A stretch of DNA of 64,000 bases from Escherichia coli. GTDB lineage: Bacteria; Pseudomonadota; Gammaproteobacteria; Enterobacterales; Enterobacteriaceae. A program made the translations under genes and the position numbers. Below are positions 8,740 to 59,118 of this stretch, one piece after another (the stretch's first letter is position 1; the number at the start of each line of letters is the position of its first letter). The stretch is taken from assembly GCF_041886205.1 (NCBI RefSeq), contig NZ_CP169029.1, one strand, 5' to 3'. The notes below the pieces were generated by a model. That model saw only the letters and a list, made by a program, of their open reading frames with translations. It searched no databases and was not told where the DNA came from.

Positions 8740-8790
8740 ATTGGGGCCGTCCCCGGTGAAAAGACGCGTTTGCAGGTCGTCCTGCAAAGC
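8740..8790 (-). promoter_or_regulatory. guanidine-II (mini-ykkC) riboswitch in gdx 5' leader
   Basis: two hairpins with ACGR tetraloops on the mRNA strand: GCAGG-ACGA-CCTGC (8772-8785) and GGGG-ACGG-CCCC (8743-8754), just upstream of a GGAG SD and the gdx ATG. Confidence 0.7.
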
Positions 8791-22968: not shown

Positions 22969-23044
22969 GCCCGGATAGCTCAGTCGGTAGAGCAGGGGAT
23001 TGAAAATCCCCGTGTCCTTGGTTCGATTCCGAGTCCGGGCACCA
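22969..23044 (+). tRNA. pheU: tRNA-Phe (GAA anticodon)
   Basis: GCCCGGATAGCTCAGTCGGTAGAGCAGGGGATTGAAAATCCCCGTGTCCTTGGTTCGATTCCGAGTCCGGGCACCA; called pheU rather than pheV from yjdC flank. Confidence 0.97.
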
Positions 23045-23056
23045 AATTCATATCAA

Positions 23057-23082
23057 CGGACCTCCACGGAGGTCCGTTTTTC
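23057..23082 (+). terminator. tRNA-Phe terminator hairpin
   Basis: CGGACCTCC-ac-GGAGGTCCG followed by TTTTTCG. Confidence 0.8.
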
Positions 23083-23241
23083 GTTTCAGAACGCCACAAT
23101 TTAAGCGTTCTACCTACAAATCAATTCTACCGAACTCAACCAGATTCCCCCCACATCAACCCCATTGTGTGGGTATAATTGCGGGCATACCCCAGTTCGA
23201 CAGAATTTGTACCCTCTTTAACGCATTCAGAAGGCTATACT

Positions 23242-24504
23242 ATGGCACTGACTGACGCAAAAATCCGGGCTGCAAAGCCCACTGACAAGGCTTATAAACT
23301 CACTGACGGGGCTGGCATGTTCCTACTGGTTCATCCTAATGGTTCCCGTTACTGGCGTCTCCGTTATCGTATTCTGGGTAAGGAGAAGACTCTGGCACTT
23401 GGTGTGTATCCAGAAGTTTCTCTCTCCGAAGCTCGTACAAAACGGGATGAGGCCCGAAAACTGATTTCGGAGGGGATTGACCCTTGCGAACTGAAAAGAG
23501 CTAAAAAAGTAGTCCCTGATTTACAACTCTCTTTTGAACATATTGCACGACGCTGGCATGCCAGTAATAAACAATGGGCACAATCACACAGCGATAAAGT
23601 ACTCAAAAGCCTCGAGACACACGTTTTCCCCTTTATCGGCAACCGGGATATCACAACACTCAGTACCCCGGACCTGCTTATCCCTGTTCGTGCTGCAGAA
23701 GCTAAACAAATTTATGAAATCGCCAGTCGTCTGCAGCAAAGAATATCTGCTGTAATGCGTTATGCCGTACAGTCTGGCATCATCAGATATAACCCGGCTC
23801 TGGATATGGCTGGTGCATTGACCACGGTAAAACGCCAGCATCGCCCTGCACTGGATCTTTCACGCCTGCCTGAACTTCTGTCGCGTATTGACGGTTATAA
23901 AGGCCAGCCTGTCACCCGACTGGCAGTTATGCTGAATTTACTGGTTTTTATTCGTTCCAGTGAACTCAGATACGCCCGCTGGTCTGAAATTGATATTGAC
24001 AATGCCATGTGGACTATTCCAGCCGAACGCGAACCTCTGCCTGGCGTAAAATTCTCACACCGGGGCTCCAAGATGCGAACACCACATCTTGTGCCACTCA
24101 GCAAACAGGCTGTAGCCATACTGGCAGAACTACAGACATGGGCTGGTGAAAATGGTCTGATCTTTACGGGAGCACATGACCCGCGTAAACCAATCAGTGA
24201 AAATACTGTAAATAAAGCCCTGAGGGTGATGGGGTATGACACAACCCAGGATGTCTGTGGCCATGGATTCCGGGCGATGGCGTGCAGTGCATTGATTGAA
24301 TCAGGTTTGTGGTCCCGCGATGCTGTGGAACGTCAGATGAGCCATCAGGAGCGTAATGGTGTACGTGCTGCGTATATCCATAAAGCAGAACATCTGGAAG
24401 AACGGCGACTGATGTTGCAATGGTGGGCCGATTTTCTGGATGCGAACCGGGAGAAGGGTATCAGTCCGTTTGAATATGCAAAAATTAACAATCCATTAAA
24501 ATAG
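23242..24504 (+). CDS. P4-family tyrosine integrase, tRNA-Phe associated
   Basis: 441-aa ORF, about 420-aa product from MALTDAKIRAAKPTDKAYKLTDGAG; C-terminal catalytic HGFR ... AAYIH (H-x-x-R / Tyr); immediately 3' of tRNA. Confidence 0.88.
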   Translation: MALTDAKIRAAKPTDKAYKLTDGAGMFLLVHPNGSRYWRLRYRILGKEKTLALGVYPEVSLSEARTKRDEARKLISEGIDPCELKRAKKVVPDLQLSFEHIARRWHASNKQWAQSHSDKVLKSLETHVFPFIGNRDITTLSTPDLLIPVRAAEAKQIYEIASRLQQRISAVMRYAVQSGIIRYNPALDMAGALTTVKRQHRPALDLSRLPELLSRIDGYKGQPVTRLAVMLNLLVFIRSSELRYARWSEIDIDNAMWTIPAEREPLPGVKFSHRGSKMRTPHLVPLSKQAVAILAELQTWAGENGLIFTGAHDPRKPISENTVNKALRVMGYDTTQDVCGHGFRAMACSALIESGLWSRDAVERQMSHQERNGVRAAYIHKAEHLEERRLMLQWWADFLDANREKGISPFEYAKINNPLK

Positions 24505-24590
24505 TAAGCAGTCCGGGCAATCAGCCCGGACTGCTGGTGATGCTGCCAACTTACTGATTTAGTGTATGATGGTGTTTTTGAGGTGCTCCA

Positions 24591-24866
24591 GTGGCTTCTG
24601 TTTCTATCAGCTGTCCCTCCTGTTCAGCTACTGACGGGGTGGTACGTAACGGCAAAAGCACCGCCGGACATCAGCGCTATCTCTGCTCTCACTGCCGTAA
24701 AACATGGCAACTGCAGTTCACTTACACCGCTTCTCAACCCGGTACGCACCAGAAAATCATTGATATGGCCATGAATGGCGTTGGATGCCGGGCAACTGCC
24801 CGCATTATGGGCGTTGGCCTCAACACGATTTTACGTCACTTAAAAAACTCAGGCCGCAGTCGGTAA
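24591..24866 (+). CDS. insA: IS1 InsA
   Basis: 91-aa [20 protein letters not shown]...; zinc-finger/HTH protein of IS1. Confidence 0.95.
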
Positions 24867-25288
24867 CCTCGCGCATACAGCCGGGCAGTGACGTCATCGT
24901 CTGCGCGGAAATGGACGAACAGTGGGGCTATGTCGGGGCTAAATCGCGCCAGCGCTGGCTGTTTTACGCGTATGACAGGCTCCGGAAGACGGTTGTTGCG
25001 CACGTATTCGGTGAACGCACTATGGCGACGCTGGAGCGTCTTCTGGGCCTGCTGTCGGCCTTTGAGGTCGTGGTATGGATGACGGATGGCTGGCCGCTTT
25101 ATGAATCACGCCTGAAGGGAGAACTGCACGTTATCAGCAAGCGATATACGCAGCGCATTGAGCGGCATAACCTGAATCTGAGGCAGCATCTGGCAAGGCT
25201 GGGCAGGAAGTCACTGTCGTTCTCAAAATCGGTGGAGCTGCATGACAAAGTTATCGGGCATTATCTGAACATAAAACACTATCAATAA
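24785..25288 (+). CDS. insB: IS1 InsB (expressed as InsAB' transposase by -1 frameshift)
   Basis: 167-aa ORF in -1 frame relative to insA; matches IS1 InsB. Confidence 0.9.
24840..24848 (+). promoter_or_regulatory. IS1 programmed -1 ribosomal frameshift site (TTAAAAAAC)
   Basis: A6C slippery run at the insA/insB overlap. Confidence 0.8.
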
Positions 25289-25354
25289 GTTGGAGTCATT
25301 ACCCGCTTTGCTTTAGCGAGAACTGGTCTTTTATTCGCACTCAGGAGTACATGT

Positions 25355-26116
25355 ATGAGGATTTGCAGCGACCAACCTTGTATTGTTTTATTGACTGAAA
25401 AAGATGTCTGGATAAGGGTGAATGGGAAAGAACCTATTAGCCTTAAAGCTAACCATATGGCGTTATTAAATTGTGAAAATAATATTATCGACGTCTCCTC
25501 TCTTAACAACACTTTGGTTGCTCATATTAGTCACGACATCATCAAAGATTACCTCCGGTTTCTGAATAAAGATCTCTCGCAAATACCAGTATGGCAACGT
25601 AGCGCTACGCCCATACTCACCCTGCCATGCCTGACGCCAGACGTCTTTCGCGTTGCCGCGCAACACAGCATGATGCCCGCAGAAACTGAGTCAGAAAAGG
25701 AACGAACACGCGCATTATTATTCACGGTGCTATCCCGTTTTCTCGACAGTAAAAAATTCGTTTCATTAATGATGTATATGTTACGTAATTGTGTAAGTGA
25801 CAGCGTTTATCAAATTATTGAAAGCGATATTCACAAAGACTGGAATCTTAGTATGGTAGCCAGTTGTTTATGTCTTAGCCCAAGTCTGTTAAAGAAAAAG
25901 TTGAAAAGCGAAAACACCAGTTATAGCCAAATAATCACCACCTGCCGCATGCGTTATGCCGTAAATGAATTAATGATGGACGGTAAAAATATCTCTCAGG
26001 TATCACAGTCCTGCGGCTACAACAGTACGTCGTACTTTATTTCTGTCTTTAAAGACTTCTACGGTATGACGCCGCTGCATTATGTTAGTCAGCACAGAGA
26101 ACGCACTGTCGCCTGA
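25355..26116 (+). CDS. adiY: AraC-family regulator AdiY
   Basis: 253-aa ORF; C-terminal AraC HTH; immediately upstream of adiC. Confidence 0.92.
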   Translation: MRICSDQPCIVLLTEKDVWIRVNGKEPISLKANHMALLNCENNIIDVSSLNNTLVAHISHDIIKDYLRFLNKDLSQIPVWQRSATPILTLPCLTPDVFRVAAQHSMMPAETESEKERTRALLFTVLSRFLDSKKFVSLMMYMLRNCVSDSVYQIIESDIHKDWNLSMVASCLCLSPSLLKKKLKSENTSYSQIITTCRMRYAVNELMMDGKNISQVSQSCGYNSTSYFISVFKDFYGMTPLHYVSQHRERTVA

Positions 26117-30011: not shown

Positions 30012-31103
30012 ATGCGTTTTCTGCGCCGACCAATATCGCTGCGCCAACGGCTGATATTGACCATCGGGGCCATTTTGTTGGTGTTTGAGCTGATCAGCGT
30101 CTTCTGGCTATGGCATGAAAGTACCGAGCAGATTCAGCTGTTTGAGCAGGCGCTACGCGACAATCGCAACAACGATCGCCACATCATGCGTGAGATCCGC
30201 GAGGCGGTCGCCAGCCTGATTGTCCCCGGCGTCTTTATGGTCAGCCTGACGCTATTTATCTGCTATCAGGCGGTACGCCGCATCACCCGCCCGCTGGCGG
30301 AGCTGCAAAAAGAGCTGGAAGCGCGCACCGCCGACAACTTAACGCCCATTGCCATTCACAGCGCCACCCTCGAAATCGAAGCGGTGGTTTCGGCGTTAAA
30401 CGATCTGGTCAGTCGCCTGACCAGCACGCTGGATAACGAAAGGTTGTTTACCGCTGACGTCGCGCACGAACTGCGAACGCCACTGGCGGGGGTGCGTTTG
30501 CATCTGGAACTGCTGGCGAAAACGCATCACATTGATGTAGCACCGTTAGTGGCACGGCTTGATCAGATGATGGAGAGCGTCTCCCAGCTGCTGCAACTGG
30601 CGCGTGCCGGACAGTCATTTTCTTCCGGTAATTATCAACATGTAAAACTGCTGGAAGATGTCATTCTCCCCTCGTATGACGAACTCAGTACCATGCTCGA
30701 CCAGCGACAGCAAACCCTGCTATTGCCAGAGAGCGCCGCCGACATCACCGTTCAGGGTGATGCAACCCTGCTGCGGATGTTATTGCGAAACCTGGTAGAA
30801 AACGCCCATCGTTACAGCCCGCAAGGCAGCAACATTATGATTAAGCTGCAAGAAGATGACGGAGCGGTCATGGCAGTTGAAGATGAAGGACCAGGTATTG
30901 ATGAGAGTAAATGCGGGGAGTTGAGTAAAGCGTTTGTACGTATGGACAGCCGTTATGGCGGGATTGGTCTGGGGTTAAGTATTGTCAGCCGCATTACACA
31001 GTTGCATCACGGGCAGTTTTTCCTGCAAAACCGGCAAGAGACTTCCGGCACGCGGGCCTGGGTACGGCTGAAGAAAGATCAGTACGTGGCAAACCAGATA
31101 TAA
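30012..31103 (+). CDS. basS: sensor histidine kinase BasS (PmrB)
   Basis: about 363 aa from MRFLRRPISLRQR...; H-box ADVAHELRTP; ATPase domain. Confidence 0.95.
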   Translation: MRFLRRPISLRQRLILTIGAILLVFELISVFWLWHESTEQIQLFEQALRDNRNNDRHIMREIREAVASLIVPGVFMVSLTLFICYQAVRRITRPLAELQKELEARTADNLTPIAIHSATLEIEAVVSALNDLVSRLTSTLDNERLFTADVAHELRTPLAGVRLHLELLAKTHHIDVAPLVARLDQMMESVSQLLQLARAGQSFSSGNYQHVKLLEDVILPSYDELSTMLDQRQQTLLLPESAADITVQGDATLLRMLLRNLVENAHRYSPQGSNIMIKLQEDDGAVMAVEDEGPGIDESKCGELSKAFVRMDSRYGGIGLGLSIVSRITQLHHGQFFLQNRQETSGTRAWVRLKKDQYVANQI

Positions 31104-31168
31104 AGAAAGCTGCTGACCACCAGCACGCTGAACACGGTAGTTAAACTTTCATAAACACGGTTTTTCAT
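31079..31168 (-). CDS. pmrR: small membrane protein PmrR
   Basis: 29-aa ORF MKNRVYESLTTVFSVLVVSSFLYIWFATY, hand-translated, antisense and overlapping the basS 3' end. Confidence 0.75.
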   Translation of the reverse strand: MKNRVYESLTTVFSVLVVSSFLYIWFATY

Positions 31169-31279
31169 TGCACTCTCCTCCGTTAACCTGGAGGAGAGTA
31201 TGCGCGTCAGAGATTAAGTGAACCTTAAGAGTTCAATTGGCCTGATAAGACAGCGTCACATCAGGCCATCCGTTTCAGC

Positions 31280-36899: not shown

Positions 36900-37082
<183 letters not shown>

Positions 37083-39550: not shown

Positions 39551-39640
39551 CGTAGGTCGGATAAGACGCCCCGGCGTCGCATCCGACAATGTGCAGGCGT
39601 TGATGCCGGATGCGGTGCAAGCACCTTATCCGGCCTACAG
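39551..39640. repeat. REP units between phnD and phnE
   Basis: GTAGGTCGGATAAGACGC...GCATCCGACA and GCCGGATGCGG...CTTATCCGGCCTAC. Confidence 0.85.
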
Positions 39641-49076: not shown

Positions 49077-49394
49077 TCAATTTCTCCGCTGCTCTATTGC
49101 CGTAATCGCCTCCACGCGTTGTTGATGACGACCGCCTTCGTACTGTGCGCCCAGCCACGCATCCACAATCATTTTTGCCAGTTCGAGGCCAACCACTCGT
49201 GAACCAAAAGCCAGTGCAACTTCACTGGCGTAATGCGGATAATCAGTGCGCTCTGACGACCTGGTTTCTTTATCAATCCCCTCACTCATTGACCATGAAT
49301 AAAAGGCTGGCACAGCAACACAGAATCCTGCGGTGCCAGCGACATGACCGCCCATTGCTCCGGTACGTTTTTTAATAAAAAACACCGGTTGCAT
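49077..49394 (-). pseudogene. rpiB: rpiB-like remnant (ribose-5-phosphate isomerase B fragment)
   Basis: 105-aa ORF; C-terminal about 60 aa (SSERTDYPHYAS...FGSRVVGLELAKMIVDAWLGAQYEGGRHQQRVEAITAIEQRRN) match my recollection of RpiB; the catalytic-loop segment is missing and the N-terminal 40 aa are unrelated. Confidence 0.6.
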
Positions 49395-49646
49395 TGATTA
49401 ATTGTGCTCAGTATTTGCCGAAGTACAATATATATAATAAATATATAAAACACCTCATATTATTTACAGAGATAATAAATTCGCGTACTTTTCCCTCTTC
49501 AGCACAAATGCCTAATAAAATGGCGCGTTCAGCTCACACTTCCACTTATTAAAGTCGCAATTTCCCAATTATGATAACGCCAGCTTTAAATGACGTATTT
49601 TGCATGGATTACATATTTACGACATAAATGATAAATGGAGATTTAT

Positions 49647-56680: not shown

Positions 56681-56809
56681 AATGTCTGCCGCGTGATGGC
56701 TGTCACGCGGTATTTCGTTTCGTCACGTCAAAACTGACGACAGCCTGTTTTTCGTCAGAGTTTTGAATAAATAGTGCCCGTAATATCAGGGAATGACCCC
56801 AAATAAAAT

Positions 56810-56826
56810 GTGGCATAAAAGATGCA
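56810..56826 (+). promoter_or_regulatory. sigma-54 (-24/-12) promoter of fdhF
   Basis: TGGCATAAAAGATGCA: GG-N10-GC spacing; upstream TGTCACG / CGTCACG repeats consistent with an FhlA UAS. Confidence 0.7.
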
Positions 56827-56877: not shown

Positions 56878-59025
56878 ATGAAAAAAGTCGTCACGGTTTG
56901 CCCCTATTGCGCATCAGGTTGCAAAATCAACCTGGTCGTCGATAACGGCAAAATCGTCCGGGCGGAGGCAGCGCAGGGGAAAACCAACCAGGGTACCCTG
57001 TGTCTGAAGGGTTATTATGGCTGGGATTTCATTAACGATACCCAGATCCTGACCCCGCGCCTGAAAACCCCCATGATCCGTCGCCAGCGTGGCGGCAAAC
57101 TCGAACCTGTTTCCTGGGATGAGGCACTGAATTACGTTGCCGAGCGCCTGAGCGCCATCAAAGAGAAGTACGGTCCGGATGCCATCCAGACGACCGGCTC
57201 CTCGCGTGGTACGGGTAACGAAACCAACTATGTAATGCAAAAATTTGCGCGCGCCGTTATTGGTACCAATAACGTTGACTGCTGCGCTCGTGTCTGACAC
57301 GGCCCATCGGTTGCAGGTCTGCACCAATCGGTCGGTAATGGCGCAATGAGCAATGCTATTAACGAAATTGATAATACCGATTTAGTGTTCGTTTTCGGGT
57401 ACAACCCGGCGGATTCCCACCCAATCGTAGCGAATCACGTAATTAACGCTAAACGTAACGGGGCGAAAATTATCGTCTGCGATCCGCGCAAAATTGAAAC
57501 CGCGCGCATTGCTGACATGCACATTGCACTGAAAAACGGCTCGAACATCGCGCTGTTGAATGCGATGGGCCATGTCATTATTGAAGAAAATTTGTACGAC
57601 AAAGCATTCGTCGCTTCCCGTACAGAAGGCTTTGAAGAGTATCGTAAAATCGTTGAAGGCTACACGCCGGAGTCGGTTGAAGATATCACCGGCGTCAGCG
57701 CCAGTGAGATTCGTCAGGCGGCACGGATGTATGCCCAGGCGAAAAGCGCCGCCATCCTGTGGGGCATGGGTGTAACCCAGTTCTACCAGGGCGTGGAAAC
57801 CGTGCGTTCTCTGACCAGCCTCGCGATGCTGACCGGTAACCTCGGTAAGCCACATGCGGGTGTTAACCCGGTTCGTGGTCAGAACAACGTACAGGGTGCC
57901 TGCGATATGGGCGCGCTGCCGGATACGTATCCGGGATACCAGTACGTGAAAGATCCGGCTAACCGCGAGAAATTCGCCAAAGCCTGGGGCGTGGAAAGCC
58001 TGCCAGCGCATACCGGCTATCGCATCAGCGAGCTACCGCACCGCGCAGCGCATGGCGAAGTGCGTGCCGCGTACATTATGGGCGAAGATCCGCTGCAAAC
58101 TGACGCGGAGCTGTCGGCAGTACGTAAAGCCTTTGAAGATCTGGAACTGGTTATCGTTCAGGACATCTTTATGACCAAAACCGCGTCGGCGGCGGATGTT
58201 ATTTTACCGTCAACGTCGTGGGGCGAGCATGAAGGCGTGTTTACTGCGGCTGACCGTGGCTTCCAGCGTTTCTTCAAGGCGGTTGAACCGAAATGGGATC
58301 TGAAAACGGACTGGCAAATCATCAGTGAAATCGCCACCCGTATGGGTTATCCGATGCACTACAACAACACCCAGGAGATCTGGGATGAGTTGCGTCATCT
58401 GTGCCCGGATTTCTACGGTGCGACTTACGAGAAAATGGGCGAACTGGGCTTCATTCAGTGGCCTTGCCGCGATACTTCAGATGCCGATCAGGGGACTTCT
58501 TATCTGTTTAAAGAGAAGTTTGATACCCCGAACGGTCTGGCGCAGTTCTTCACCTGCGACTGGGTAGCGCCAATCGACAAACTCACCGACGAGTACCCGA
58601 TGGTACTGTCAACGGTGCGTGAAGTTGGTCACTACTCTTGCCGTTCGATGACCGGTAACTGTGCGGCACTGGCGGCGCTGGCTGATGAACCTGGCTACGC
58701 ACAAATCAATACCGAAGACGCCAAACGTCTGGGTATTGAAGATGAGGCATTGGTTTGGGTGCACTCGCGTAAAGGCAAAATTATCACCCGTGCGCAGGTC
58801 AGCGATCGTCCGAACAAAGGGGCGATTTACATGACCTACCAGTGGTGGATTGGTGCCTGTAACGAGCTGGTTACCGAAAACTTAAGCCCGATTACGAAAA
58901 CGCCGGAGTACAAATACTGCGCCGTTCGCGTCGAGCCGATCGCCGATCAGCGCGCCGCCGAGCAGTACGTGATTGACGAGTACAACAAGTTGAAAACTCG
59001 CCTGCGCGAAGCGGCACTGGCGTAA
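56878..59025 (+). CDS. fdhF: formate dehydrogenase H (selenoprotein; UGA140 = Sec)
   Basis: 139-aa ORF and 559-aa ORF are in the same frame, separated only by TGA at 57295-57297; N-terminal CPYCASGC Fe-S motif; 715-aa molybdoenzyme. Confidence 0.96.
57295..57340 (+). promoter_or_regulatory. in-frame UGA Sec codon plus SECIS stem-loop of fdhF
   Basis: TGACACGGCCCATCGGTTGCAGGTCTGCACCAATCGGTCGGTAATGGC immediately 3' of UGA. Confidence 0.85.
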
Positions 59026-59118
59026 TACAGTCCTTTCTACAGCCTCCTTTCGGAGGCTGTTTTTTTATCCATTCGAACTCTTTATACTGGTTACTCCCTA
59101 CCCAATCGTATTATCAAA

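Follow-up and report, generated by a model that had tools for sequence, protein, structure and literature searches.

The window analysed here, by which we mean the whole 64-kb stretch of Escherichia coli DNA, carries fdhF, the gene for formate dehydrogenase H, on the + strand. The gene is interrupted by a single in-frame TGA codon that lies within a predicted RNA hairpin, and it is flanked by candidate signals for the start and the end of transcription. The features, with the evidence for each, are as follows.

56811..56826, + strand: sigma-54-type -24/-12 promoter-like site, TGGCATAAAAGATGCA (two mismatches to the pattern; 52 nt upstream of the ATG)
56878..59025, + strand: fdhF coding sequence, 715 codons plus TAA (translation, identity to PDB 1AA6, TIGR01591, and a RefSeq CDS in identical DNA)
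57290..57344, + strand: bacterial SECIS at its full Rfam extent (SECIS_2 at 87.1 bits; the minimum free energy [MFE] structure is the consensus structure)
57295..57297, + strand: UGA codon 140, almost certainly recoded as selenocysteine (Sec140) (the only in-frame stop; aligns with X140 of the crystallised protein)
57309..57325, + strand: apical 17-nt hairpin, GGUUGCAGGUCUGCACC (read from the sequence; folds of the 46-nt and 55-nt segments)
59039..59070, + strand: intrinsic terminator-like hairpin plus T-run (terminator scan; 14 nt past the fdhF stop codon)

Reading frame and flanks of fdhF

In the mechanical list of open reading frames (ORFs), fdhF is represented by two + strand ORFs in one frame, 56878..57297 (139 aa) and 57346..59025 (559 aa). 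The 48-nt gap between them is an artefact of the ORF lister, which does not begin a new ORF until the first ATG (57346), and all 16 of the codons in the gap (57298-57345) are open. Translation of 56878-59025 gives the TGA at 57295-57297 as the sole internal stop, and from 57298 the frame stays open to the TAA at 59023-59025. The first-pass annotation had described a same-frame pair of ORFs parted by TGA alone and a gene of 715 codons; the ORF list and the translation agree with the former, and the codon count (139 + 1 + 575 = 715 before the TAA) with the latter.

The split in the ORF list is also the starting point for two other readings of the locus. In the first, the gene is truly truncated, that is, a pseudogene in which the TGA is only a stop, the product is a 139-aa fragment, and the 575 downstream codons are a decaying remnant; a mechanical ORF finder does split the gene at this point. 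In the second, there are two genes, one for a 139-aa Fe-S protein and one for a 559-aa molybdopterin protein that starts from the ATG at 57346, and the second of the two listed ORFs does have an ATG start. The evidence that bears on each of these readings is given below, where it arises.

Transcription of fdhF is known to start from a sigma-54 promoter that depends on FhlA and formate. In the window, the sigma-54 pattern occurs no more often than expected (22 matches versus 29), and therefore the assignment of this promoter to the site at 56811..56826, which we infer, draws on prior knowledge. The hexamer TCGTCA occurs at 56720-56725 and again at 56752-56757, with an inverted copy (TGACGA) at 56735-56740. 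These copies precede the sigma-54-like site by about 55-105 nt, a position that we take to fit the FhlA upstream activating sequence known for fdhF. Just before them, at 56687-56712, is a terminator-like hairpin for mdtP. The hairpin downstream from fdhF has a 9-pair stem with six G-C pairs and a 4-nt loop, and is followed by TTTTTTT.

Identity of the product

Formate dehydrogenase H (FDH-H), which contains selenium and molybdenum, is the catalytic subunit of formate hydrogenlyase, and we take Sec140 to be the molybdenum ligand in its active site. When the TGA is counted as one residue, the joined product is identical to E. coli formate dehydrogenase H (PDB 1AA6) at 715 of 715 positions, and the non-standard residue X140 (as annotated by the depositors) sits opposite the TGA in the alignment. 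PDB entries 1FDO, 1FDI, 2IV2, and 7Z0T are matched as well. The joined product also passes the NCBIfam equivalog TIGR01591 (1095.7 bits versus a cutoff of 666.25). Its Pfam domains occur in the order Molybdop_Fe4S4, Molybdopterin, Molydop_binding, and the formate dehydrogenase homologues in PDB have this domain order and the molybdopterin/tungstopterin fold in common with it.

The closest known counterpart is fdhF of E. coli K-12 (WP_001300547.1), with which all 715 protein positions are identical, the UGA being at codon 140 in both. The neighbourhood (mdtP-fdhF-yjcO-gltP) is also the same, and we found no differences in the gene, so that the strain background alone differs. Some FdhF/Fdh-alpha homologues have a Cys encoded by a normal codon at the Sec position and have no need for a SECIS or for sel genes; in contrast, the codon here is UGA.

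These comparisons decide against the two-gene reading. When the two pieces were scanned separately, the TGA was found to cut PF00384, the upstream piece matching profile positions 1-80 and the downstream piece 90-352. Because one PF00384 domain thus spans the TGA, two independent genes are ruled out. In addition, the 16 codons after the TGA contain no stop and correspond to residues 141-156 of the single-chain structure that has been solved, and RefSeq has one CDS. On these three grounds (the span of the domain, the open intervening codons, and the RefSeq CDS) we rejected the two-gene reading, which we consider exceedingly improbable. The truncation reading is also at odds with these comparisons, given that the frame downstream from the TGA is intact and identical to that of a functional, crystallised enzyme.

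The SECIS element

A SECIS hairpin had been proposed to follow the TGA directly, and both the fold of 57295-57340 and the Rfam search agree with this. The sequence at 57290-57344 (55 nt) matches Rfam RF01988 (SECIS_2) over model positions 1-55 of 55, at 87.1 bits versus a gathering score of 70. The local search gives an E-value of 7.9e-19 and a search of the whole window one of 1.8e-17, and this is the sole SECIS match at the gathering threshold in the 64 kb. There is an overlapping weak match to RF01989 (SECIS_3), but at 35.8 bits it is below the gathering score of 63, so the fdhF element is not a member of that family. A SECIS that scores above the curated Rfam threshold also argues against the TGA being only a stop.

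The 46-nt segment at 57295-57340 forms a stem of 15 pairs, with interruptions, that is capped by a GGUC loop (-14.9 kcal/mol). For the full 55 nt at 57290-57344 (-19.7 kcal/mol), the MFE structure is exactly the Rfam SECIS_2 consensus, including the 5-bp outer helix in which 57290-57294 pair with 57340-57344 around the UGA. It should be noted that these folding energies are no better than chance (z about -1.3, with 22-25 of 200 dinucleotide shuffles equalling the native energy for the 46-nt and 55-nt segments). Energy alone therefore cannot establish the element, and we used the covariance-model score instead.

The apical hairpin begins 11 nt past the UGA, and we take it to be the minimal SelB-binding element of fdhF. 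Its loop (GGUC, 57316-57319) occupies positions 22-25 counted from the U of the UGA, and two adjacent U residues are found at positions 17 and 18 (57311/57312), one of which is bulged in both the MFE and the Rfam structures. A bulged U at position 17/18 and the loop residues G23 and U24 are determinants of SelB binding. The element in the window thus carries determinants of the type described in the literature, both in the loop and in the bulge. A departure from the SECIS_2 consensus is a G-U pair (U at 57291) where the consensus has a C-G pair, and a U at this position is also present in 9 of 33 distinct Enterobacterales variants. The SECIS elements of E. coli fdnG and fdoG, two genes that are located outside the window, follow the same principle of an in-frame UGA and then a SelB-binding hairpin.

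Conservation within E. coli and across Enterobacterales

Among five E. coli variants with identities down to 96%, the TGA and the next 42 nt are invariant, whereas flanking wobble positions vary. Across species, we scanned one genome per species for a TGA, 11 nt, and the identical apical hairpin, and found this arrangement at 120 or more Enterobacterales loci. The genera among the loci listed include Citrobacter, Enterobacter, Klebsiella, Salmonella, Kluyvera, Serratia, Budvicia, Arsenophonus, and others. Each of the loci listed (at least 120) has the TGA in frame; upstream of it, about 140-210 codons are open, and downstream, wherever the locus is uncut, 575. A stop that is kept in frame across at least 120 loci, with 575 open codons after it, is difficult to reconcile with truncation.

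When the 33 distinct Enterobacterales 56-mers are placed on the Rfam structure, 93.2% of cells are paired, compared with 22-50% when the partners are slid. The variation is almost wholly at third-codon positions, and C/U changes opposite G retain pairing. No compensatory double changes were found in the SECIS stem across the 33 variants, a sample of coding sequence in which the apical hairpin is identical by selection, and for which the shuffle control is uninformative. Thus, the comparative evidence is conservation of the arrangement, not covariation. Several pairs of the lower stem (columns 9/48, 18/40, 13/45, and 16/42) are disrupted in some species, in line with the view from the literature that the SECIS is essential only in its apical part.

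Among the 33 variants, the free wobble positions in the outer helices change only with pairing kept (C to U opposite G), and this is a hint of some added function. We raise tentatively, as a suggestion that we consider rather doubtful, that the lower stem and the 5-bp helix that encloses the UGA (57290-57294/57340-57344) may serve a conserved function beyond that of the minimal SelB-binding hairpin. The outer helices might, for example, protect the UGA from RF2 or set the timing of SECIS refolding between ribosomes.

The sel genes

The first-pass annotation had made the recoding depend on the presence of selA, selB, selC, and selD. Based on the annotations of matching genomes and a tRNA search, none of the four is in the 64-kb window, where the sole tRNA is tRNA-Phe. 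The expectation that they are present holds by proxy only. The nearest complete genome is that of E. coli wlxctx60 (NZ_AP045833.1), which is 99.99% identical over positions 39001-64000 of the window (25 kb), and in which selA, selB, selD, and tRNA-Sec (selC) are all present and none is flagged as a pseudogene. We also used the K-12 genes as queries against 5426 complete E. coli genomes, a set that the source strain is outside of, and found selAB in 5425, selC in 5424, and selD in 5425 of the 5426.

The indirectness of this check could speak in favor of truncation, as could the unusual IS1-associated deletion that the window carries elsewhere (see below). Against this, the sel genes are intact in a relative that is 99.99% identical and occur in at least 5424 of 5426 genomes of the species.

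In NZ_AP045833.1 (L012 15170-16602 and L009 1-8052, next to selC), an integrase gene directly follows tRNA-Sec, and next to it is a P4-like satellite element with sid, psu-like (polarity suppression), ogr/delta-like, and primase-helicase genes. The selC gene is a common integration site for such elements.

Public annotation of fdhF

The 2.4-kb fdhF region is 100% identical to that of many complete E. coli chromosomes, with a match in 5419 of 5426 complete genomes (seven have no match, and four matches are on records typed as plasmids). On identical DNA, RefSeq gives a single 2148-nt fdhF CDS between mdtP and yjcO, and some records label the product "selenocysteine-containing." It had been remarked in the first-pass annotation that automated pipelines often call such a gene a truncation or pseudogene. 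This does not apply to the RefSeq/PGAP records examined, which list an intact fdhF in the best 10 rows, in 30 of 30 sampled rows, and in two whole-gene feature tables. The split of fdhF is seen only with naive ORF finders.

A separate point concerns the name of the product. In some RefSeq records it is given as [quoted passage not shown] As fdhF encodes FDH-H, the FDH-N naming looks like an inconsistency in public annotation.

Other features of the window

The region at 22969-26116 comprises tRNA-Phe (22969-23044), a long ORF (23179-24504) that is a tyrosine recombinase/integrase in the annotation of relatives, IS1 (about 24535-25305), and adiY (25355-26116). Compared with wlxctx60, which is 99.99% identical, about 17 kb is missing at this junction, including adiA, melR, melA, yjdF, fumB, dcuB, dcuRS, yjdIJ, ghoST, the lysine-tRNA ligase gene, and a dtpC fragment. 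In wlxctx60, cadCBA is not annotated next to tRNA-Phe, which we assume to be its usual position in K-12, and IS1 abuts the dtpC fragment. No genome among the 5,426 complete E. coli ones matches the junction (23158-25304) over at least 80% of its length. The junction looks like an IS1-associated deletion that removed the arginine decarboxylase gene adiA along with anaerobic fumarate genes.

At about 49215-49422, the allose operon (alsR, alsB, alsA, alsC, alsE, and alsK; about 6.8 kb) is absent compared with strain EcPF16, and rpiB, which lies between yjdP and yjcS, is cut down relative to the same strain to an ORF of 318 nt. The allose operon and rpiB are in the same state in wlxctx60 as in the window. 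Other Rfam matches above the gathering score are at 8742-8788 (-), 31072-31237 (-), 36903-37079 (+), and 39555-39635 (-); the kinds represented are a guanidine-II (mini-ykkC) riboswitch, the sRNA STnc630, and three naRNA4 (REP-derived) copies.

Recoding of UGA140 as selenocysteine

The selenoprotein reading proposed in the first-pass annotation is supported by the 715/715 identity to 1AA6 with X140 opposite the TGA, by the SECIS_2 match, and by TIGR01591. We regard it as practically certain that fdhF here is one 715-codon selenoprotein gene, in which UGA140 is read as selenocysteine with the help of the SECIS. This is a textbook case and was already known: bacterial selenocysteine recoding has fdhF as its founding example, and the field takes the SECIS of this gene as its reference element.

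What the analysis shows is which gene this is, where its UGA lies, that the SECIS matches Rfam, that the arrangement is conserved across species, and that the sel genes are present in the nearest genome and across the species. From established knowledge, recoding would be expected to proceed as follows. As the ribosome nears the UGA, the mRNA just downstream would fold into the SECIS hairpin. The C-terminal domain of SelB would bind the apical 17-nt stem-loop (57309-57325), 11 nt past the UGA. SelB would act as a specialised elongation factor that carries GTP and Sec-tRNA(Sec), the product of selC; this tRNA would have been charged with serine, and SelA would have converted the serine to selenocysteine with selenophosphate from SelD. 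At the A site, the Sec-tRNA(Sec) brought by the tethered complex would compete with RF2, and translation would then run on to the TAA at 59023-59025. In the finished protein, Sec140 would become the molybdenum ligand in the FDH-H active site.

Published work has placed the SECIS of fdhF in the sequence encoding residues 141-153, after UGA140, and gives 30-40% recoding in vivo (PMC4513850). SECIS-dependent Sec insertion was shown experimentally in the same study for a fragment of fdhF (aa 130-179) that includes UGA140 and the SECIS (PMC4513850). Given that only 30-40% of ribosomes recode UGA140 in these reporter assays, some ribosomes must therefore terminate, releasing the 139-aa fragment. To this extent the truncation reading describes a product that is really made. 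As an account of the gene, it was rejected, as the stop is conserved in orthologues and there is no decay downstream, and we consider it very improbable, although a little less so than the two-gene reading.

In one further alternative, the UGA is read through by a standard tRNA (e.g., a near-cognate Trp or Cys tRNA), giving a selenium-free protein of full length. Low-level Sec-independent misreading of UGA does exist in E. coli, and a construct without the SECIS has served as the control for it (PMC4513850). In the case of fdhF, the non-standard residue at position 140 of the crystallised protein and the conservation of a dedicated SECIS and of the sel genes led us to reject this explanation, to which we give as little credence as to two separate genes. 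The Cys140 variant of FDH-H is far less active, and thus a product made with a standard tRNA would be at most a minor side product.

Implications

For annotation, the consequence of reading UGA140 as selenocysteine is that the two apparent ORFs should be joined into one fdhF CDS, with the UGA marked as selenocysteine and no pseudogene call. Current RefSeq annotation already handles fdhF correctly in this respect. If the outer helices of the SECIS do have a function of their own, this would refine the known mechanism of selenocysteine insertion and would not represent a new kind of element, given that the Rfam model already has these helices.
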